Shown here one piece after another: positions 50-18,963 of a DNA stretch of 35,424 nucleotides; within the stretch, counting starts at the first letter, position 1, and every line of letters begins with the position of its first letter. The notes below the pieces were generated by a model. It saw only the letters and a list, made by a program, of their open reading frames with translations, searched no databases and was not told the origin of the DNA. Origin of the DNA: a virus; UHGV virus genome UHGV-0155082; one strand, written 5' to 3'. The position numbers and the translations under genes were made by a program.

Positions 50-1579
50 TTAGTTTTCATTTTGGGAAATTTTTTCCAGAACTGAGTCAACCATTTTTAT
101 TCCCATCTCATTTACTACATCAGAATTAATAACTCTATCAAAATAGCTTTCTATATGTTGGGAAAAAAGGAAGGCTGCACTGGATGGTTCTTTGTTCTTT
201 TCAACTGCGTATTGCAGAACCATATGAGGAGGCACATGTGCATTTTTGCAGGATGCAACAAGGTACTCAAATTCATCAAAAGCTAAGCAAAATATATTTT
301 CTTTAGGTATGTGGTAGTCAGTATTGAATTTATCATATATCTTTAGCATCTCAGTTTCTGCATATGTACTGGCAAGGAATGTACCATTACCTAAAAATAA
401 GTTTTTATATGTAATGCATATCACAAAAGATTCTTTCCTGAATGGGGTTATTGTTGCTTTATCGTCTAAGTAAATTTCTCTGTTAACTTCATGAGCTTGC
501 TCGATAGCTTTTAAAACAGACTTTTTTATTTTTCCTGAAATATCCTCTGGCCGTAAAGTAACCATGCCTTTTTGATGTATTTCAACCCCCTTGGCATCAA
601 TGAATATATTTGCATTCGCGTGTGGAAACAAAAAATCAACTACTTTATTATCTTTGGGTAACTTTTCTTTAAGATGATCCTCTGTGATAACAGGAATATT
701 ACTCTCTTGAATAATTTTTCCTAATGCTCTTTCGAATACAGTTCCAAAACTGTCCATGAATTTTTCAGCGTCAGTTCTTCTTAAAAGGTCATATATAAAT
801 GTTTGTATGCTTCTTGATGTTAGTTGTGCATGTATCTGGAAATAATCAGAACCTTTTTTGATTAAAGGATTTTCTAAGTACGGTGAAGATGAATAGTATT
901 CTAACAAAGGCTTTTCAAATGTCTTGGATTTTGAAAATTTTGATAGCTCACTGTAATTTATTGAGATTGCATCGAGAAAGTTCTCTACGGTATCTTTGGG
1001 TAAAATAGGGAATAACACACTGAAACTATTGACATTTATTTTTCTGACGGGATGTTCCGTTGTTATTAGTGATATTAAAATGTAAGATAGTTTTAAAAAA
1101 TCATCAATTGAAATGTTTGTTAACTTGAAAAACGATGTCTTTATTTTATGAGTGTTTTCGAGTTGTGAGAATAAAAATACCTGTCTGCTAATGGAGTTTA
1201 TTGCGTCAATTTTTTGATAAATACCTTGTTGGTATAAATTATTTCTTAGAAAAAAATGCACTCCGTTTTTCTTTTCAAGACCAATGGGGATGATACTTAA
1301 AGTTTCATAGGCTTTTTGAAATAGCTTGATGGCTTGATTTTTTGTAAGGGTTTTGAACTTTCTATTCTTGCCTATTACAGATGCTGACCATTTTAAACAT
1401 AAGTTTACTATCCACGGCATATGACGCAGCATGTGTAAATTATCATCAAATTTTTGTAGATTATATTGCATGCAGAATTCAATGAATAATTCGGGGTTAT
1501 AACTTTGAATTTCTGAACGAATAGAGTCCATTCTCAGTTTAGCAACAGCATCTGATTGAATGTCTATATTTTTAATCAC
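50..1579 (-). CDS. Hypothetical 509-aa protein, AT-rich accessory gene immediately downstream of int on the same strand; possible PD-(D/E)xK-like nuclease motif in the C-terminal half
   Basis: Long ORF with GTG start at 1579 preceded on the minus strand by GGAG about 8 nt upstream. Only 12 nt separate it from the int stop. Visibly AT-rich codon usage unlike the phage core. Motif VDFLFPHANANIFIDAKGVE resembles a D...(D/E)xK nuclease core. No family recognised by eye. Confidence 0.55.
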   Translation of the reverse strand: MIKNIDIQSDAVAKLRMDSIRSEIQSYNPELFIEFCMQYNLQKFDDNLHMLRHMPWIVNLCLKWSASVIGKNRKFKTLTKNQAIKLFQKAYETLSIIPIGLEKKNGVHFFLRNNLYQQGIYQKIDAINSISRQVFLFSQLENTHKIKTSFFKLTNISIDDFLKLSYILISLITTEHPVRKINVNSFSVLFPILPKDTVENFLDAISINYSELSKFSKSKTFEKPLLEYYSSSPYLENPLIKKGSDYFQIHAQLTSRSIQTFIYDLLRRTDAEKFMDSFGTVFERALGKIIQESNIPVITEDHLKEKLPKDNKVVDFLFPHANANIFIDAKGVEIHQKGMVTLRPEDISGKIKKSVLKAIEQAHEVNREIYLDDKATITPFRKESFVICITYKNLFLGNGTFLASTYAETEMLKIYDKFNTDYHIPKENIFCLAFDEFEYLVASCKNAHVPPHMVLQYAVEKNKEPSSAAFLFSQHIESYFDRVINSDVVNEMGIKMVDSVLEKISQNEN

Positions 1580-1591
1580 GATTATTCTCCA

Positions 1592-2605
1592 TTATAAATT
1601 GTGCAGAGGATTTTTGGTCACAGCATCTTCAAGATGTTCTGGGGCAAAATGAGCGTAAACCATTGTCATTTTAATATCTGAGTGCCCAAGAATATCGCGC
1701 AGAACCAGAATATTCCCGCCATTCATCATAAAATGACTGGCGAATGTATGACGCAGCACGTGGGTGCATTGGCCCTCTGGTAGCTCGATGCCTGCTCGCT
1801 TTACTGCTCGTTCAAAGGCTTTTCTGCACGGGGTGAATAGCTTCCCTCTGTTCTTGGGGAGTTCGTCATACAGATTTTGAGATATCGGCACGGTACGATT
1901 TTTCTTACCTTTTGTCTTGGTATAGGTGATCCGGTATTTTGATAACTGATGGCCCTGCAGGTTTTCTGCTTCACTCCATCGCGCACCAGTAGCCAGGCAT
2001 ATTTTTGCAATCATTAGTAGGCTGGTGTTTTGAGATTCGGCGCAGGCATTAAGCAGGCGTTTGATTTCGTCCGTGGAAAGAAAAGCCAGTTCACCTTCAG
2101 CAATTTTGAAGGTTGGAAGCCCAGCCAGCGGGTTTGGTGCGGACCAGTGTCCTAGTTTTTTCAATGTACCGAACACCGATGACAGGTTACGCTGCTCAAG
2201 ATTAACTGTGCGAGGTTTAACGGGTGACATGAACGAGCCGTCTTCATTTTGGACCTCCCCCTTTAATCTGGCTTCCCGATATTTTGTGAAATCACCTGCT
2301 GTCAGCTCAGAGGCGATGGGATCGCCTAGACCATTACAGATAATTCTAAGTTTCGCCATCAGGCGTTTGGGGTCTGCGAGTGTTTGACCATATAGGGAAT
2401 ACCACTGCTCAATCACTTCTGATAATCGCCGCCGATCTTCCTTCTCACCAAGCCATGGCTTTTTGTTTACTTCGTCCATGGTGAAGTTTTCGAATGCTAT
2501 GGCTTCGCCTTTCGTGGCAAATTGCTTACGCACGCGCTTGCCATTGCGTCCATTGGGATAGCACTCACACAACCATTTTCCGTTCGGCTGTTTTCTGATG
2601 GTCAT
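1592..2605 (-). CDS. int: Phage integrase, tyrosine site-specific recombinase (P2 Int-like)
   Basis: 337 aa, same length as P2 Int. C-terminal catalytic region ...CTHVLRHTFASHF...LGHSDIKMTMVYAHF contains the R/H-x-x-R-H...Y signature of tyrosine recombinases. Sits directly downstream of the repressor gene, as in the P2 C-int operon. Confidence 0.9.
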   Translation of the reverse strand: MTIRKQPNGKWLCECYPNGRNGKRVRKQFATKGEAIAFENFTMDEVNKKPWLGEKEDRRRLSEVIEQWYSLYGQTLADPKRLMAKLRIICNGLGDPIASELTAGDFTKYREARLKGEVQNEDGSFMSPVKPRTVNLEQRNLSSVFGTLKKLGHWSAPNPLAGLPTFKIAEGELAFLSTDEIKRLLNACAESQNTSLLMIAKICLATGARWSEAENLQGHQLSKYRITYTKTKGKKNRTVPISQNLYDELPKNRGKLFTPCRKAFERAVKRAGIELPEGQCTHVLRHTFASHFMMNGGNILVLRDILGHSDIKMTMVYAHFAPEHLEDAVTKNPLHNL

Positions 2606-2606
2606 A

Positions 2607-3239
2607 TCAAAGGCTCTTAATGATTTTCAGTGCACGGCCTACTACCTCAATGTCATCCAGGCCACACTCAAACGATGAATCATCCTGATGCACTACTAAT
2701 CTGTTTCCCGGGAGTCGAGTCAATTTAACAATGCTTTTTATCCCGTCGATATCGACTAACCACATACCATTCACTGGTGGTGTTTGGTTGCGATCTATTA
2801 AATAAGAATCACCGGAAGTAGTCACCAGCAGCAGGTTGCTTGAGTCTGAGGGGAGTATGCTGCTATCAATGATTGCTTTTCCAGCATCGACCAATAAACC
2901 ACCGTTGAGAGTTGCCTTGTCAATTTCAGGAGATACAAGCTCAGAAAGAGGTTTAACTTTGCTTGAGTTCACGAAATTGATATTTTTTTTAGGGTCAATA
3001 TTTGAACCTGGCTCGCCCTGTCCGGTGGTTAGCCACAGTAAAGAAACTCCTGTTTCCAGGGCGCACTGAATCACCCACTCAGCTGGAAAACTATCTCTTA
3101 AATATCTGTTTGCCATGGTACTTTTTGATGCGCCTAAGTGATCGCAAAGTTGCTGTCTGGACTTGAAATCATAGGCTGCCATTAGTCTATGGATAGCCTC
3201 TCTTCCCCCTGTATTCTCACCAGCCTTTACTTGTACCAT
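2607..3239 (-). CDS. Immunity repressor, 186 CI-type (N-terminal HTH, C-terminal S24/oligomerisation-like domain)
   Basis: 210 aa. N-terminal HTH-like segment KSRQQLCDHLGASKSTMANRYL. C-terminal GMWLVDIDGIKSIVKL resembles LexA/CI-type beta domain. Positioned divergently from the cox/apl-like gene and upstream of int. Confidence 0.7.
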   Translation of the reverse strand: MVQVKAGENTGGREAIHRLMAAYDFKSRQQLCDHLGASKSTMANRYLRDSFPAEWVIQCALETGVSLLWLTTGQGEPGSNIDPKKNINFVNSSKVKPLSELVSPEIDKATLNGGLLVDAGKAIIDSSILPSDSSNLLLVTTSGDSYLIDRNQTPPVNGMWLVDIDGIKSIVKLTRLPGNRLVVHQDDSSFECGLDDIEVVGRALKIIKSL

Positions 3240-3358: not shown

Positions 3359-3601
3359 ATGAGCACTGATATTTCAATTCGTGTACCAAAAGAGATGGCT
3401 ACGCCTGCAGAGTTCGCAGAGTGGGAGGGCATTTCCCGTGGCTCTGTTTACCAAAAAATTCACCATGGTCAACTTGCTAAGTACATGGTCAAGAAAGAAA
3501 AAAACAAAGGCCGCGTAAGCCTGCGTTATCTGATGTACAAAACCGATCAGGTCCGTGAATCCCTCGGTCATTCCAACTTCCGCGTCATTGTTGGTAAGTA
3601 A
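3359..3601 (+). CDS. Apl/Cox-like small DNA-binding regulator/excisionase
   Basis: 80-aa ORF, first gene of the early rightward operon, divergent from the repressor. HTH-like PAEFAEWEGISRGSVYQKIHHGQL. Position equals P2 cox / 186 apl. Confidence 0.6.
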   Translation: MSTDISIRVPKEMATPAEFAEWEGISRGSVYQKIHHGQLAKYMVKKEKNKGRVSLRYLMYKTDQVRESLGHSNFRVIVGK

Positions 3602-3633: not shown

Positions 3634-4143
3634 ATGTTTGATTACAAGATTTCCAAACATCCGCATTTTGATGAAGCCTGTAGGGCTTTTGCACTACGCC
3701 ACAACCTGGTGCAACTGGCAGAACGTGCAGGCATGAATGTGCAGATTCTGCGGAACAAGCTGAACCCAGCTCAACCTCATTTATTAACCGCACCAGAAAT
3801 CTGGCAGCTTACCGATCTGACTGAAGATTCAACGCTGGTAGACGGTTTTCTGGCACAGATTCATTGTCTGCCATGTGTACCGATTAATGAGGTGGCAAAA
3901 GAGAAACTGCCACATTACGTTATGAGTGCAACTGCAGAGATAGGGCGTGTCGCGGCAGGTGCGGTTTCTGGCGATGTAAAAACCAGTGCAGGCCGTCGTG
4001 ATGCGATCAGCAGCATTAACTCTGTTACACGACTGATGGCGCTGGCTGCTGTTTCATTGCAGGCCCGTTTACAGGCTAATCCTGCGATGGCGAGTGCAGT
4101 TGATACCGTGACTGGCCTCGGTGCCTCATTCGGTTTGCTGTGA
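3634..4143 (+). CDS. CII-like lysogeny establishment regulator (186 CII / CP76 family)
   Basis: 169 aa, the length of 186 CII. Second gene of the early operon. RBS GGGGG before the ATG. Alanine-rich C-terminus. Confidence 0.55.
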
Positions 4144-4957: not shown

Positions 4958-5184
4958 TGGCTGATGCAATGGATCTCGTACAGCAGCGCGTTGAAGAAGA
5001 ACGCCAACGCCATATCCGTGCTGCCCGTGCCAAAACGCCGGGCGTGTCCCGCGTGCTTTGCATTGAGTGTGAAGCGCCAATTCCGCCAGCACGCCGCCGT
5101 GCCATTCCGGGTGTGCAGCTTTGCATTACCTGTCAGGAAATCGCAGAGCTGAAAGGCAAACATTACAACGGAGGTGCTGTATGA
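4957..5184 (+). CDS. DksA/TraR-family C4 zinc-finger protein
   Basis: 75 aa with CIECEAPIP...(17 aa)...CITCQE, i.e. C-x2-C ... C-x2-C typical of the TraR/DksA C4 finger. Start overlaps the upstream stop. Confidence 0.65.
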   Translation: MADAMDLVQQRVEEERQRHIRAARAKTPGVSRVLCIECEAPIPPARRRAIPGVQLCITCQEIAELKGKHYNGGAV

Positions 5185-6038
5185 GCACCATCCTGAAATG
5201 GGCGGGAAATAAAACTGCCATAATGTCCGAACTGAAAAAACATCTTCCTGCTGGCCCGCGACTGGTTGAACCTTTCGCGGGTTCCTGTGCTGTGATGATG
5301 GAGACGGATTATCCCAGCTATCTGGTTGCGGATATTAATCCTGATTTAATCAACATCTATAAAAAGGTTGCCGCTGATTGTGAATCGTTTATATCTCGCG
5401 CCAGAGTTTTATTTAAGGAAGCAAACAGGGAGGTGGCTTATTACAACATAAGGCAGGAGTTTAATTACTCAACTGAAATTACTGATTTCATGAAAGCGGT
5501 ATATTTCCTGTATCTCAATCGTCACGGTTACCGTGGTTTATGTCGCTATAACAAGAGCGGGCATTTCAACATTCCCTACGGTAATTATAAAAATCCGTAT
5601 TTCCCTGAAAAAGAAATTCGCGCATTTGCAGAAAAGGCCCAGCGAGCAACGTTTATCTGCGCCAGCTTTGATGAAACGCTGGCGATGTTGAAGGCGGGGG
5701 ATGTGGTGTATTGCGATCCGCCGTATGACGGTACGTTTTCCGGCTATCACACTGACGGCTTCACTGAAGATGACCAGTATCACCTGGCATCTGTTCTTGA
5801 ACATCGGTCATCAGAAGGACATCCGGTCATTGTTTCTAACAGTGACACATCCCTGATCCGTTCGCTGTATCGCAATTTTACTCACCACTACATCAAGGCA
5901 AAACGCAGCATCGGTGTGGCAGCTGGCGAGGGTAAATCAGCAACAGAAATCATTGCTGTTTCCGGGCCGCGCTGCTGGGTGGGATTTGATTATTCGCGTG
6001 GCGTGGATAGTTCTGCCGTGTACGGAGTACGTGCATGA
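5181..6038 (+). CDS. dam: DNA adenine methyltransferase (Dam-like, N6-adenine MTase)
   Basis: ATG at 5181 preceded by GGAGGTG. N-terminal [11 protein letters not shown]...EPFAGSCAV (AdoMet-binding motif I) and catalytic DPPY motif ([10 protein letters not shown]). Confidence 0.85.
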
Positions 6039-8449
6039 GTCATGCCGATATGAACAACTGCTGCGGCTTTAACGAAGCTGCCGCATCGTTCTCATGGAAC
6101 AGCCCGAAAAAGGCCATTAACCCTTATCTGGACCCGGTGGAAGTTGCGCCGGTTTCTACGCTTTCAAACCTGATCACTCTGTACGCTGCCGATAACGAGC
6201 AGGAACAGCTGCGCCGTGAGGCGCTGAGTGATCAGGTCTGGGAGCGTTATTTCTTTAATGAATCCCGTGATCCTGTCCAGCGCGAAATGGAACAGGATAA
6301 GCTCATTAGTCGGGCAAAGCTGGCGCATGAGCAGCAGCGTTTTAATCCGGATATGGTCATTCTGGCGGACGTCAACGCCCAGCCCTCCCATATCAGCAAG
6401 CCGCTGATGCAACGTATTGAATATTTCAGCAGCCTGGGCAGGCCAAAGGCTTATTCCCGCTATTTGCGTGAGACGATTAAGCCATGTCTGGAACGACTGG
6501 AGCATGTCCGCGACTGTCAGCTATCCACTTCTTTTCGCTTTATGGCAAGCCATGAAGGGCTGGATGGCCTGCTTATCCTGCCTGAAATGAGTCAGGATCA
6601 GGTGAAGCGCCTGTCTACCCTTGTCGCTGCGCATATGAGCATGTGCCTTGATGCCGCTTGTGGTGATTTGTATGCCACCGATGACGTTAAGCCAGAAGAA
6701 ATCCGCAAAACATGGGAAAAGGTGGCAGCGGAAACCCTGCGTCTGGATGTTATTCCGCCTGCGTTTGAGCAACTCCGTCGGAAAAGAAACCGCCGTAAAC
6801 CCGTGCCCTATGAACTCATTCCGGGTTCGTTGGCGCGTATGTTGTGTGCCGACTGGTGGTATCGGAAATTATGGAAGATGCGTTGCGAATGGCGGGAAGA
6901 GCAGTTGCGTGCTGTCTGCCTGGTCAGCAAAAAAGCATCCCCCTATGTCAGCTATGAAGCCGTGATGCATAAACGTGAGCAGCGCCGTAAGTCGCTGGAG
7001 TTTTTCCGTTCTCATGAACTGGTGAACGAAGACGGCGACACGCTGGATATGGAAGATGTGGTAAACGCCAGCAGCAGCAACCCGGCGCATCGCCGCAATG
7101 AGATGATGGCCTGTGTTAAAGGTCTGGAGCTTATCGCGGAAATGCGCAGTGACTGCGCCGTTTTCTACACTATCACCTGTCCGTCGCGTTTCCATTCCAC
7201 GCTCAATAACGGCAGACCCAACCCGACCTGGACAAACTCGACGGTAAGACAAAGCAGCGACTATCTGGTCGGCATGTTTGCTGCATTTCGTAAGGCGATG
7301 CACAAAGCCGGATTGCGCTGGTATGGCGTGCGGGTGGCTGAGCCGCATCATGACGGTACAGTTCACTGGCACCTGTTGTGTTTTATGCGCAAAAAAGACC
7401 GCCGCGCCATCACTGCATTACTGCGTAAGTTTGCCATCCGTGAAGACCGCGAGGAGCTGGGCAATAACACTGGGCCGCGCTTTAAGTCTGAGTTGATTAA
7501 CCCGCGCAAAGGAACGCCGACAAGCTACATCGCGAAATATATCAGTAAGAACATTGACGGGCGTGGTCTGGCTGGCGAGATCAGCAAGGAAACGGGTAAA
7601 TCTCTGCGTGATAACGCTGAATACGTTAATGCCTGGGCGTCTCTGCATCGTGTTCAGCAATTCCGCTTCTTTGGCATTCCGGGGCGTCAGGCTTACCGTG
7701 AACTGCGATTGCTGGCTGGTCAGGCGGCAAGGCAACAGGGTGACAAAAAAGCAGGTGCTCCGGTACTGGATAACCCGCGCCTTGATGCCATTCTGGCTGC
7801 TGCTGATGCTGGCTGTTTTGCCACCTACATTATGAAGCAGGGCGGCGTGTTGGTTCCCCGCAAATATCACTTGATCAGAACCGCTTATGAAATCAACGAA
7901 GAGCCGACCGCCTATGGCGATCACGGCATTCGTATTTATGGCATCTGGTCACCCATTGCAGAGGGCAAGATCTGCACTCATGCAGTGAAGTGGAAAATGG
8001 TTCGTAAGGCCGTTGACGTTCAGGAGGCGGCAGCCGACCAGGGCGCTTGCGCCCCTTGGACTCGTGGCAATAACTGTCCCCTTGCTGAAAATTTGTACCA
8101 ACAAGGGAAAGACAAATCAGCTGATGGAGATACCAGAACGGATATCACCCGCATGGATGACAAGGAGTTGCACGATTACCTGCACAGTATGAGCAAAAAA
8201 GAGCGCCGGGAACTGGCTGCAAGGTTACGCCTGGTGAAACCGAAACGGCGTAAAGACTACAAACAGCGAATTACAGACCATCAGCGACAGCAGCTCGTCT
8301 ATGAACTGGAGTCCAGAGGATTTAATGGCAGCGAGAAAGAGGTCGATTTACTCCTTCGCGGCGGCAGTATTCCGTCAGGAGCAGGTCTGCGTATCTTCTA
8401 TCGGAACCAGCGTTTGCAGGAAGATGATAAGTGGCGAAACCTGTATTAA
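6035..8449 (+). CDS. A: Replication initiation endonuclease (P2 gpA-like rolling-circle initiator)
   Basis: 804 aa. HUH-type motif VHWHLLCF and paired active-site tyrosines YIAKYISKN. Start overlaps the dam stop (ATGA). Position after the early genes as in P2. Confidence 0.9.
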
Positions 8450-8541
8450 TTACGAGGGTTAACAATTCGTGCTCTTAATAATACCAGGCATATCAGGCTG
8501 ATGAACGTAAAAAAACGTTTTGCATCAGTAAGATTATTATA

Positions 8542-8561
8542 TACTGTAAATATAAACAGTG
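8542..8561. promoter_or_regulatory. LexA (SOS) box
   Basis: taCTGTaaatataaACAGtg matches the CTGT-N8-ACAG SOS-box consensus. Lies about 40 bp upstream of the RBS and ATG of the 8603 ORF. Confidence 0.65.
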
Positions 8562-8602
8562 GTTATGTATACAGTATTGCTTGTGGTGTCATAGGAGGAA
8601 AG

Positions 8603-8791
8603 ATGCAGGACTATTTTTTGGAGTCTTTGAAGCTCCAGCGCATTGATTTTTTTCTTAAGCTTGTAGCGGCTAGTGAGTGTAGTGATGAAGAGAAGGGGCT
8701 GGCTTTGCAGTGGGTTTCTGAACTGACAGATGAACTCATGGCAAAAATCAGAAGCCACGAATACAACCGCTCAATGGATGTCATCAGCTGA
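8603..8791 (+). CDS. Small SOS-regulated protein (62 aa), possible Tum-like antirepressor
   Basis: ATG at 8603 preceded by AGGAGG. Directly downstream of the LexA box. Followed by a DinI-like ORF, an arrangement reminiscent of 186 tum. Confidence 0.45.
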   Translation: MQDYFLESLKLQRIDFFLKLVAASECSDEEKGLALQWVSELTDELMAKIRSHEYNRSMDVIS

Positions 8792-8801
8792 GGGGACTTT
8801 T

Positions 8802-9035
8802 ATGCGCATTGAAATAATGATCGATAAAGAGCAGAAGATTAGCCAGTCTACCCTGGACGCCCTTGAATCCGAGCTTTACCGCAATCTGCGCCCCCTGTAT
8901 CCCAAAACGGTAATTCGTATCCGTAAAGGTAGCTCTAACGGTGTGGAACTGACCGGACTGCAACTGGACGAAGAAAGGAAGCAAGTGATGAAAATTATGC
9001 AGAAGGTGTGGGAAGACGACAGCTGGCTGCATTAA
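8802..9035 (+). CDS. DinI-family protein
   Basis: 77 aa starting MRIEIMIDK...; the pattern MRIE..I.K......DAL..EL.R.......P....V.....S.......G..........I..I....WE..D.W matches E. coli DinI. RBS GAGGGGA upstream. Confidence 0.75.
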   Translation: MRIEIMIDKEQKISQSTLDALESELYRNLRPLYPKTVIRIRKGSSNGVELTGLQLDEERKQVMKIMQKVWEDDSWLH

Positions 9036-9305
9036 GAAACGTTGCTGGCGTCTGAACTTGCTTCTGGCGTCAGCAAGGTTGAACAACGAGCTGTGCGAGG
9101 CGTTAGTGTCAATTTGTTACCTTAACCACGATATATGCCAGGAAATTAACAGTTCTTAAGAAACCGCTTGCATGATCGAGCGCATTGAACTTAAGTTTAA
9201 GTAACGAAATCAACAGATGATATTGTTGTCTAAATTTTAAAGATAATCTGTTGAGGTTGTAGGCGTCGGAGTGTAGACTTCCGCGCCATGTAAAAAGGGG
9301 GAGTT

Positions 9306-9521
9306 ATGTCAAGCATCGCCGCATTTAGCCTGGGTAACCCAGTTGAACGTCTGGCAAGGGTTCTTAAAGAGAACCAGGACAAACTCAATCTTAGTAAAGA
9401 TGGTTTTGTGTCCGTAGACTTGTCTAACAAAAGAGCAATGGATGCCATCAAGGCACAGATGGATAAGCTTGAAGGCATCAAAACGAGCACTGTAAAAGAG
9501 AAAACTAATAGAACCAGATAA
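9306..9521 (+). CDS. Hypothetical 71-aa soluble protein, first gene of a two-gene accessory operon
   Basis: ATG preceded by AAGGGGGAG. Stop TAA overlaps the ATG of the downstream 280-aa gene (TAATG). No recognisable motif. Confidence 0.5.
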   Translation: MSSIAAFSLGNPVERLARVLKENQDKLNLSKDGFVSVDLSNKRAMDAIKAQMDKLEGIKTSTVKEKTNRTR

Positions 9522-10363
9522 TGGCAACATTACTTTTAGCAGTGATTTTGGTTAGTGGTTTTATTTATGTAAACCTATCACTTTCAACAAGATACCGATA
9601 TAAGCGTTCCAACGGCTGGGACGCTTATTTTTTTGTGGCTGCCTGGGGTATCGTTTTTTTTCTCCTTGGCGGTTTTTTCACCTTTATTTTGAACGTCAGC
9701 GGAGGGTTTCGTTGGCTGGCTAATGCCTTGAATCTAACACCTGACAGTTTTAATGGCATGTTGTCTTCATCGAAAGACAAACTTCAAAGAATAAATGAAA
9801 TCAAACAGATAGCATGGGTTATGATTTCAATTGTCCTCGCTGCGATTTCAGGTTTTGGAAATAAGTTACGCACATCACGTGGAGATCGTCGCTGGGATGC
9901 CTTAGCTAAAGCTGTGGGTAATAACGCTTTCGAATCATTACTCATGGAAGCGTCCGCAAGACAGTTTCCGATCATAGCAACTCTGTCGTCTCGCAAAATC
10001 TATGTTGGTCTTGTTACTTGTCCGGCGTTAGAAAACGGGCTTTCAGAGCACCTTGAACTTCTCCCGATGTTAAGCGGATATCGGGATAAAGATGATCTAA
10101 CGATTAGTATCACGACTAACTATCACCAACATTATCTTGATAGTGGTGTGATAAGTGGAATGTCTCGTCTTAATATCGAAGATTTCCGTGTGCTCATACC
10201 AAAAGATGAGGTTGAAACAATTTCGTTTTTTGATACTGAGACATATAACAAATTTAAAGAAAATGAAGCCAGGGATAGAAAGAGCTGTCGAAAGATTGGT
10301 AGTAAAAGTGCATCTTCGCGCAGCAAGCGTGCAGCAGATGCTGAGTCAAATGATCGTGCATGA
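9521..10363 (+). CDS. Hypothetical 280-aa integral membrane protein (three predicted TM helices plus a charged C-terminal domain)
   Basis: Hydrophobic segments LLLAVILVSGFIYVNLSL, AYFFVAAWGIVFFLLGGFFTFIL and IAWVMISIVLAAISGFG. Lysine/serine/arginine-rich C-terminal tail. Occupies the position of tin/old in P2. Followed by a terminator. Confidence 0.6.
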   Translation: MATLLLAVILVSGFIYVNLSLSTRYRYKRSNGWDAYFFVAAWGIVFFLLGGFFTFILNVSGGFRWLANALNLTPDSFNGMLSSSKDKLQRINEIKQIAWVMISIVLAAISGFGNKLRTSRGDRRWDALAKAVGNNAFESLLMEASARQFPIIATLSSRKIYVGLVTCPALENGLSEHLELLPMLSGYRDKDDLTISITTNYHQHYLDSGVISGMSRLNIEDFRVLIPKDEVETISFFDTETYNKFKENEARDRKSCRKIGSKSASSRSKRAADAESNDRA

Positions 10364-10410
10364 CTATGCTGCATGAGATCGCATGATCGTTTGAGGATCG
10401 TTTTTGCTAA

Positions 10411-10436
10411 GGCCCGCCAGAACTGGCGGGCTTTTG
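10411..10436 (+). terminator. Rho-independent terminator after the 71-aa/280-aa operon
   Basis: GC-rich hairpin gcccgccag / ctggcgggc followed by TTTT. Confidence 0.65.
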
Positions 10437-10480
10437 CGTAGATCATGCACCTGCATGAAAACTACTACATAAAGCGGGCA

Positions 10481-10499
10481 GGCGTGGCGGGGATACGAG
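10481..10499. other. Candidate cos (cohesive-end) region
   Basis: GC-rich ggcgtggcggggatacgag matches about 14 of 19 positions of the P2 cohesive end as I recall it (ggcgaggcggggaaagcac). Lies in non-coding DNA upstream of the portal/terminase cluster. Recalled from memory and not verified. Confidence 0.3.
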
Positions 10500-10588
10500 C
10501 GCGCGCTGATGGGGGACGCAGTGCTTTTGGCATAGTTATGAGGTAGAATTTCAAAATACTTTTTAGCGCTGTTGGAGGTATAGACAAA

Positions 10589-11134
10589 ATGGACGTTATA
10601 ACTGGAGTTGCAGAGTTTTTTCGAAAAGTACCTGCAGCATTTCTTGTGGCTATTACATGTGTTTTAGGTCTTATACTTTTTCTGCCAGACTCTTTGGCAG
10701 TAAAAGTGGCTGTTGATGGCTTTCGTAATGAGTATAGGATTTTTATTGGACCTGCATTTTTACTGTCTGTATCTTATTTAGTTGCAAGAGTCTATCTCTC
10801 TTTCTATGACTTACTTGGTGAAAGGCAGGCTAAGAAGGTACGCACTTCCTACCTTGAGAAGCTAACAGCAGAAGAAAAAGGATATTTAAAGTCTTATATT
10901 ACCGAAGGTGTTAATTCACTTATGTGTGGGCCTGAGGATGGGGTCATGGGGGGACTTGTGGCTAAGGGGATTACTTATAGAGCCACCAGTGTTGGGGATA
11001 TGATCTACGGTTTTGCTTTCAACTTACAGCCATGGGCGCGTGAACATTTAGAGAAAAATAGTCATTTATTAGATGGGGCTATTGGGCGTGCAATGACTCC
11101 AAGAGAAAAATTAAACTTTAGATTGGGACGCTAA
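10589..11134 (+). CDS. Hypothetical 181-aa membrane protein, possibly a superinfection-exclusion (SieB-like) protein
   Basis: ATG preceded by GGAGG. N-terminal TM helix AAFLVAITCVLGLILFLP and a second hydrophobic segment IFIGPAFLLSVSYLVARVYL. Lies between the cos-like element and the portal gene. SieB assignment is from weak recollection only. Confidence 0.45.
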   Translation: MDVITGVAEFFRKVPAAFLVAITCVLGLILFLPDSLAVKVAVDGFRNEYRIFIGPAFLLSVSYLVARVYLSFYDLLGERQAKKVRTSYLEKLTAEEKGYLKSYITEGVNSLMCGPEDGVMGGLVAKGITYRATSVGDMIYGFAFNLQPWAREHLEKNSHLLDGAIGRAMTPREKLNFRLGR

Positions 11135-11180
11135 CCAGTCACACATTACCAATGTGTGACTGGTGGTGGTTATTTCTTTT
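11135..11180. terminator. Perfect 13-bp inverted repeat (hairpin) with T-rich tail, probable terminator between convergent genes
   Basis: ccagtcacacatt-acc-aatgtgtgactgg (11135..11163) followed by tggtggttatttctttt. Sits between the stop of the 181-aa gene and the stop of Q. Confidence 0.55.
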
Positions 11181-18538: not shown

Positions 18539-18963
18539 ACCGGTTGCTGCTGGTTGTGCTGGCGTTATTACTGGCGGCGCTGGGCTGGCAGACGTGGCGG
18601 CTGGCTGATGCCAGCCAGACCATCAGCACACAGGCAGACGAGCTGCAGAGCAAAAGCCAGGCACTGGCAAAGAGCAACAGCCAGCTTATCAGCCTGTCCA
18701 TTCTGACAGAAACCAACAACCGGGAGCAGGCGCGACTCTATGCCGACGCAGAACAGACCAGCGCACTACTGAGACAACGACAACACCGGATTGAGGAACT
18801 GAAACGTGAGAACGAGGATTTACGCCGCTGGGCTGATACTCCTTTGCCTGCTGACATTATCCGGCTGCGGGAACGCCCGACACTCACCGGAGGTGCAGCT
18901 TACCGTCAGTGGTTGTCCGCGAGTGACGCCGTGTCGGCTGGGGCAGGCAGCGCCGCGCACTAA
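18535..18963 (+). CDS. LysB, Rz-like inner-membrane spanin
   Basis: 142 aa. N-terminal TM LLLVVLALLLAALGW followed by a coiled-coil-like region rich in Q/E/L/R. Contains an embedded +1-frame lipoprotein gene. Confidence 0.6.
   Translation: MNRLLLVVLALLLAALGWQTWRLADASQTISTQADELQSKSQALAKSNSQLISLSILTETNNREQARLYADAEQTSALLRQRQHRIEELKRENEDLRRWADTPLPADIIRLRERPTLTGGAAYRQWLSASDAVSAGAGSAAH

Follow-up and report, generated by a model that had tools for sequence, protein, structure and literature searches.

Proposed SOS operon of a Fels-2-like prophage, with a LexA-controlled TumA as candidate CI antirepressor and a separate DinI-like gene

Our analysis indicates that the Fels-2-like prophage studied here carries an SOS operon in which a LexA-controlled TumA protein would sequester the CI repressor and so bring about induction, a reading to which we assign a probability of roughly 0.85. 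The operon is located in a stretch of 35,424 nucleotides that was analyzed as a whole and is referred to here as the window. It is made up of a LexA box, a small tumA-like gene (ORF-A) and a DinI-like gene (ORF-B, or tumB). The anatomy of the module, the homology of its products, the conservation of its box and the type of its CI were established in this work, and LexA control and antirepression are carried over from 186, PSP3 and Fels-2. The SOS module of this prophage is already known, the split of tum having been described for Fels-2 and PSP3.

The window represents a Fels-2-type prophage of the P2/186 family, and its relevant features are collected in Table 1. The SOS module sits directly downstream of the gpA-like replicase gene, and the same order is found in 186, Fels-2 and PSP3.

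Table 1. Positions of the SOS module, the repressor gene and neighboring prophage features in the window
Feature	Position	Strand	Basis
509-aa ORF beside int at the prophage end	50-1579	-	phrog_14259 (unknown function), E 2e-165; no PADLOC match
int	1592-2605	-	gene of the prophage
cI repressor, 186-type, 210 aa, presumed TumA target	2607..3239	-	PF07022 and PF16452; alignments to 186 and Fels-2 CI
apl-like gene	3359-3601		
cII	3634-4143		PF06892
dam-like methylase	5121-6038		
gpA-like replicase	6035-8449		
Putative -35 hexamer TTTGCA of a p95-like SOS promoter	8519..8524	+	analogy with the annotated 186 p95
Putative -10 hexamer TACTGT, left arm of the LexA box	8542..8547	+	same hexamer and overlap annotated for 186 p95
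LexA (SOS) box TACTGTAAATATAAACAGTG	8542..8561	.	single such site in the window; shuffle test; conserved in relatives
RBS AGGAGG of ORF-A	8593..8598	+	sequence; invariant in relatives
tumA-like gene (ORF-A), 62 aa, predicted CI antirepressor	8603..8791	+	phrog_698, Fels-2 identity, hhalign to Tum, AF2
RBS GAGGGG of ORF-B, overlapping the ORF-A stop codon	8790..8795	+	sequence
tumB / DinI-like gene (ORF-B), 77 aa	8802..9035	+	PF06183, Fels-2 identity, Tum C-half, 1GHH alignment
71-aa ORF, cargo block	9306-9521	+	phrog_9843
280-aa ORF, cargo block	9521-10363	+	phrog_3630
SieB-like superinfection-exclusion protein, cargo block	10589-11134	+	PF14163, E 4.5e-25

A preliminary description of this DNA had pointed to a near-consensus LexA box with a 62-aa ORF just downstream of it, followed by a DinI-family ORF, and all three elements are borne out by the data presented below. 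A sequence scan of the window finds a perfect CTGT-N8-ACAG match at 8544-8559, and the 20-mer that contains it, TACTGTAAATATAAACAGTG, matches the E. coli LexA consensus TACTGTATATATATACAGTA at all but 3 positions. This is the sole site of its kind in the 35.4-kb window, and none of 100 dinucleotide-preserving shuffles yielded one. The site is also maintained among relatives. In 80 IMG/VR relatives the CTGT and ACAG arms are essentially fixed and the spacer and downstream bases vary. The distance from the box to the start of ORF-A is 41 nt, which places CTGT 59 nt before the ATG, and the box stands at this identical distance in 76 of the 80. In more distant relatives a box of the form TACTGT-N8-ACAGT precedes the tumA start by 22-77 nt (11 of 11), and a LexA box occupies the equivalent position in both 186 and PSP3, that of PSP3 being TACTGTATAAATATACAGTA, upstream of tumA. 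Such conservation supports function, and the box is more than a chance match.

The position of the box relative to the likely promoter is also shared with 186. The p95 promoter of 186 is annotated with a -35 hexamer TTCACA and a -10 hexamer TACTGT, the latter being the left arm of the LexA site. From this analogy we infer a p95-like promoter in the window, in which the putative hexamers are separated by a spacer of 17 nt. A generic promoter/terminator scan returned 0 sites and is blind to this promoter because both hexamers are too weak for its thresholds; no clear intrinsic terminator was seen after ORF-B. The -35 hexamer of the window, TTTGCA, differs from the TTTACA present in Fels-2, in 79 of the 80 close relatives, in Escherichia phage Cartapus and in the Klebsiella phages discussed below. 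With this A-to-G change the hexamer resembles TTGACA less, and SOS induction might be weaker as a result. For Gifsy-1 in ST313, silencing by a promoter SNP has been reported (PMC5322425).

Two other sites resemble the LexA box to some degree. A partial second LexA-like site, CAGTGGTTATGTATACAGTA at 8557-8576, overlaps the first box by 5 bp and has a good right arm (ATACAGTA) and a poor left arm. Its TACAG core is invariant in relatives and the flanking bases vary; a weak second operator and the transcription-start region are both possible readings of the site. Apart from the box itself, CTGT-N8-ACAG occurs in the window only as CTGTCCATTCTGACAG at 18694-18709, which has a GC-rich spacer, unlike a LexA box, exceeds 3 mismatches to the 20-mer consensus and is most likely a chance match.

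ORF-A begins with the ATG at 8603, ends with the TGA at 8789-8791 and is preceded by an AGGAGG RBS (Table 1). The mechanical ORF list gives a 96-aa version starting at 8501, which is not credible because that start precedes both the promoter and the box. ORF-A is 97% identical to STM2728 of Fels-2 and matches phrog_698, a family annotated as of unknown function, at E 6e-38; it has no family in the Pfam scan and none in NCBIfam.

The link between ORF-A and the antirepressor half of 186 Tum is visible by profile methods and not by pairwise BLASTP, which gave no match of ORF-A to either 186 Tum or PSP3 TumA. The N-terminal 70 residues of Tum match phrog_698, the family of ORF-A, at E 6e-6, and phrog_8554 is matched by both Tum (3e-12) and ORF-A (1e-8). 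When a family alignment of 32 diverse ORF-A relatives (A2) was set against 186 Tum, hhalign returned a probability of 95.7% and an E value of 9e-9, with residues 4-45 on residues 4-45. Sequence identity between ORF-A and the Tum N-half is ~20%, and the two share the core [LIV]-[QE]-R-[IV]-[DE]-x-[IVF]-x-[RK]-L ... C ... [DE]-[KR]-x-[LI]-A-[LIV]-x-[WL]-[IV]-[AS]-E-[LIM]. Taken at the level of sequence, these matches support the assignment of ORF-A as a homologue of the N-terminal, non-DinI half of Tum.

The AF2 model of ORF-A is a two-helix hairpin (helices 2-23 and 28-61, pLDDT 88.5) with a conserved Cys at the turn, and the protein is acidic, with a pI of 4.6 and a net charge of about -5. The TumA profile had 0 matches among PDB sequences, and Foldseek of the model against the PDB returned only generic and uninformative helical hairpins, none at E <= 0.001.

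The second gene is clearly of the DinI family. ORF-B matches Pfam PF06183 with E 6.6e-23 and 81.3 bits (cut-off 24.2) over profile positions 1-63 of 63, and aligns along its full length to E. coli DinI (1GHH, residues 1-77) at E 3e-6. It is 41% identical to residues 71-145 of 186 Tum, the DinI-like C-terminal half, and 100% identical to STM2726.1 of Fels-2. The score of ORF-B against the NCBIfam equivalog PRK10597, which represents the chromosomal E. coli DinI, is 42.7 bits and falls below the cut-off of 111, and ORF-B is therefore a prophage paralogue and not the chromosomal DinI. Judged from family membership only, ORF-B would bind RecA filaments and modulate their co-protease activity. With ORF-A corresponding to the N-half of Tum and ORF-B to its C-half, the earlier proposal that the tum equivalent is present here as two reading frames, with the DinI-like part separate, holds.

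Given that both halves form one reading frame in 186, ORF-A and ORF-B might be the wreck of a once-fused tum that was split by a nonsense mutation and whose upstream piece is now decaying. We regard this as very improbable in view of how the stand-alone form is distributed and maintained. An exhaustive HMMER search recovered ORF-A relatives in 85 clusters at 50% identity, nearly all of them stand-alone proteins of 50-100 aa and none fused to DinI, and there are four separate PHROG families of ~60 aa; the stand-alone form is thus the norm. ORF-B has its own conserved RBS and ATG, and the gap of 10 nt between the ORF-A stop and the ORF-B ATG is kept, in 77 of 80 loci. Polymorphism in ORF-A amounts to 17 synonymous changes against 1 non-synonymous change, a ratio that is biased by the selection of the set on protein identity. 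In 186, too, the DinI-like part is provided with an internal RBS and a GTG start of its own, and the annotation treats it as a separate modulatory product.

The 3' half of ORF-B (8900-9000) is a mosaic patch within the DinI gene. Compared with the window from 8100 on, Klebsiella phages ST15-OXA48phi14.1 and Kp4845-2 and Escherichia phage Cartapus show 92-100% identity up to ~8850-8900 and ~70% at 8900-9000, where they have a PSP3-TumB-like allele. A single block of 92-100% identity extends from the gpA 3' end over the promoter and ORF-A through the first 100 nt of ORF-B. The values of dS are 0.03-0.09 in ORF-A and 0.6-1.0 in ORF-B. Overlapping constraint on the synonymous sites of ORF-A was considered as a cause and ruled out by a sliding comparison, because the divergence is that of a recombinant patch in the ORF-B 3' half.

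The presumed target of TumA is the CI repressor. In the Pfam scan the window CI matches PF07022 (the 186-type HTH) and PF16452 (the 186-type C-terminal domain) only, and no S24/LexA-like peptidase domain was found in it. It aligns with 186 CI along 92% of its length, at 32% identity, and shows 58% identity to the CI of Fels-2. The repressor is thus of the 186 type, as had been put forward in the preliminary description. With 186-type domains and no S24 match, autocleavage is unexpected. Autocleavage of CI stimulated by RecA, as in lambda, with the SOS module irrelevant to the switch, is the default paradigm for SOS-inducible prophages, and we found no support for it in the window. The domain content of the repressor stands against it, as does the alignment of the window CI end to end with 186 CI, which is inactivated by Tum sequestration, and we consider this mode of induction extremely improbable. 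The antirepressor route that had been favored over repressor autocleavage is, as an interpretation, supported by the Tum N-half homology, the non-S24 CI and the precedent of PSP3 and Fels-2.

Phage 186 provides the reference for antirepression by Tum. Its record annotates tum with the description 'expression repressed by LexA; inhibits CI DNA binding', and induction by LexA-derepressed Tum that sequesters CI is the standard account (PMC7708051), both in agreement with the earlier description of the LexA-controlled 186 tum as the antirepressor gene that triggers induction. The window resembles 186 in having a LexA box that overlaps the -10 TACTGT, a module just after the replicase gene, a CI target of the same family, and products homologous to the N-half (ORF-A) and C-half (ORF-B) of Tum. 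It differs in that both halves are fused in a single 146-aa Tum in 186 but encoded by two cistrons in the window, and sequence identity is low in both halves (values above). The SOS operon of 186 extends, according to its record, into orf97, which blocks infection.

PSP3 shares the split tum with the window, having a LexA box, a small ORF and then a separate DinI-like ORF. Its RefSeq record gives tumA the description 'similar to 5' end 186 tum; UV induction of prophage' and likens tumB to dinI and to the 3' end of 186 tum. PSP3 TumB is close in sequence to ORF-B, whereas PSP3 TumA (60 aa) is remote from ORF-A, with nothing found by BLASTP and an E value of 0.003 from hhalign. The intergenic gap in PSP3 is 3 nt as against 10 nt in the window, and the PSP3 CI is longer (286 aa). 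In Lemire et al. 2011 the tum of both Fels-2 and PSP3 is given as split in two, and Tum is likened to an antirepressor-DinI fusion (PMC3121763). The same paper attributes antirepressor activity to the upstream PSP3 gene, as a personal communication from G. Christie cited together with Bunny et al. 2002.

The closest known relative is Fels-2 itself, in which gpA, a LexA box, a 62-aa ORF and, 10 nt on, a 77-aa DinI ORF follow one another in the same order. In Salmonella Typhimurium LT2 the two genes are STM2728 and STM2726.1 (STM2727 in LT2 numbering), with the identities given above (97% and 100%), the promoter/box region is nearly identical, and the dam, gpA, cII and apl backbone is the same. 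Besides the -35 hexamer, Fels-2 differs from the window in its CI immunity type and in the unrelated cargo downstream of DinI. In the Fels-2-positive Salmonella strain TA100, increasing doses of the mutagen MX gave 5.5-, 11.1- and 14.8-fold induction of STM2727 (PMC2225428); this study tabulates STM2727 with the LexA regulon and gives STM2726-STM2727-STM2728 as one operon.

A comparable arrangement is described in PMC3121763 for the lambdoid prophages Gifsy-1, -2 and -3, in which a LexA-repressed operon (dinI-gfoA/gftA) encodes a DinI homologue and a small antirepressor acting by sequestration of a non-cleavable repressor. The paper also documents cross-talk among prophages. The gene order there is reversed, with dinI first, and the repressors GfoR and GtgR belong, by the description in that paper, to a group with DicA and RacR.

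The relative importance of the two genes can be judged from distant relatives. A contig profile search with a narrower ORF-A alignment (A3) found 11 distant loci (L164-L174), from Brenneria, Ewingella, Serratia, Mixta and Pantoea and from two MAGs. Their TumA-like ORFs, near position 9001, are only 31-49% identical to ORF-A. All 11 have a 186-type CI on the same contig as TumA and the box, and a DinI ORF is present in 2 of them and absent after TumA in the other 9. Since the box, TumA and the 186-type CI persist and DinI accompanies them in only 2 of 11 loci, TumA is the conserved partner of CI. From these comparisons DinI looks like an optional, dispensable add-on to the module.

These loci bear on the possibility that the LexA-controlled unit is a host-modulating DinI 'moron', in which ORF-A contributes nothing to induction and the prophage either cannot be induced, like P2, or is induced in some other way. 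Such a reading draws on the fact that DinI is the only part of the module with a curated family assignment and that ORF-A is annotated as 'hypothetical protein' almost everywhere; moreover, non-polar dinI deletions were without effect on Gifsy induction (PMC3121763), so a prophage DinI can be accessory. However, the loss of DinI with retention of TumA in 9 of the 11 distant loci is contrary to what a DinI-centered unit predicts, and the homology of ORF-A is to the antirepressor half of Tum. In addition, the lethal lexA-null phenotype is attributed to the Fels-2 prophage in the title of Bunny et al. 2002, as it appears in Lemire et al. 2011 (PMC3121763). We therefore judge a unit built around DinI to be unlikely.

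The TumA proteins of the distant loci have a further common feature at their C-terminus. In 7 of the 9 loci that lack DinI, TumA ends in a conserved Gly-rich tail, with K-x-P-Q-x-G-G...G-G-x-L-Q at the very end. The same tail occurs in many of the representative-library matches, for example P0146, P0174, P0182 and P0192.

In the mechanism that we propose, host LexA in the lysogen would be bound to the box at 8542-8561 and would block the weak sigma-70 promoter, a block attributable to the overlap of the box with the -10 hexamer. DNA damage would activate RecA and lead to LexA self-cleavage, allowing a bicistronic tumA-dinI transcript to be made. TumA, as a 62-aa acidic helical hairpin, would then bind the non-cleavable 186-type CI and prevent it from binding its operators. 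With CI off the operators the early lytic promoter would be derepressed and the prophage induced. Because CI would be sequestered and not destroyed, this induction should be reversible. The DinI paralogue probably modulates the activity of the RecA filament, and hence the amplitude or duration of the SOS signal, and would be an accessory part and not the inducer. That the TumA of the window inactivates the CI of the window is inferred; as this CI is only 58% identical to that of Fels-2, its compatibility with the window TumA is assumed.

The relationship between TumA and CI was explored further in a close set of 80 IMG/VR contigs (L084-L163) with TumA at least 98% identical, from 56 of which CI could be extracted. 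Clustering of the 56 CI proteins at 80% identity gives 14 clusters, 13 intact and 1 truncated, with pairwise identities of 35-74% and lengths of 187-258 aa. Relative to the window CI, the N-terminal HTH domain is 59-81% identical and the C-terminal oligomerization domain 26-55%. Across these phages identity is 92-100% over the region that extends from the gpA 3' end (compared from 8100) through tumA, and the immunity regions are swapped. By sequence comparison, the combination of a near-invariant TumA with swapped immunity regions is ordinary mosaicism.

In a switch that depends on an antirepressor, a constant TumA facing varied CI proteins means either that TumA sees a conserved CI surface, most obviously on the N-terminal domain, or that many of these prophages have lost SOS inducibility. 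TumA identity correlates with the identity of the CI N-terminal domain (Spearman 0.71) and not comparably with that of the C-terminal domain (0.17), though shared ancestry and 13 identical TumA rows confound this correlation, which is a hint only. It is possible, with a chance that we place somewhat below even, that TumA is a generic antirepressor whose docking site is the N-terminal domain conserved among 186-type CI proteins. If so, heteroimmune Fels-2-like prophages could swap immunity regions freely and keep their SOS inducibility. The uncoupling of TumA from CI type would then predict cross-induction among heteroimmune Fels-2-like prophages in polylysogens.

The module is widespread. Its 561 bp are present in 1125 of 5426 complete E. 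coli genomes (~21%), where they are annotated 'hypothetical protein | DinI-like family protein', in 56 phage records, mostly of Klebsiella, Escherichia and Salmonella Peduoviridae, and in more than 500 IMG/VR contigs. On the reading preferred here, the module would indicate the route of induction both in this prophage and in the prophages of these ~21% of complete E. coli genomes, namely LexA-controlled sequestration of CI and not its cleavage. It would also improve annotation, since the 62-aa gene, a 'hypothetical protein' in PGAP and most phage records, becomes a candidate TumA-type antirepressor.

Downstream of the module, between DinI and the portal-side genes, lies a block of AT-rich cargo (9100-11170) with a GC content of ~40%, as against ~54% in the flanking phage genes. 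All of its genes are on the strand of the SOS module (Table 1), and a PADLOC scan of this neighboring cargo gave no matches. The block may in part be SOS-induced, because no terminator was found after ORF-B, the 186 SOS operon runs on into orf97 and STM2726 of Fels-2 is listed as belonging to the operon of the tum halves. At the other side of the prophage, the 509-aa ORF beside int is probably accessory cargo.
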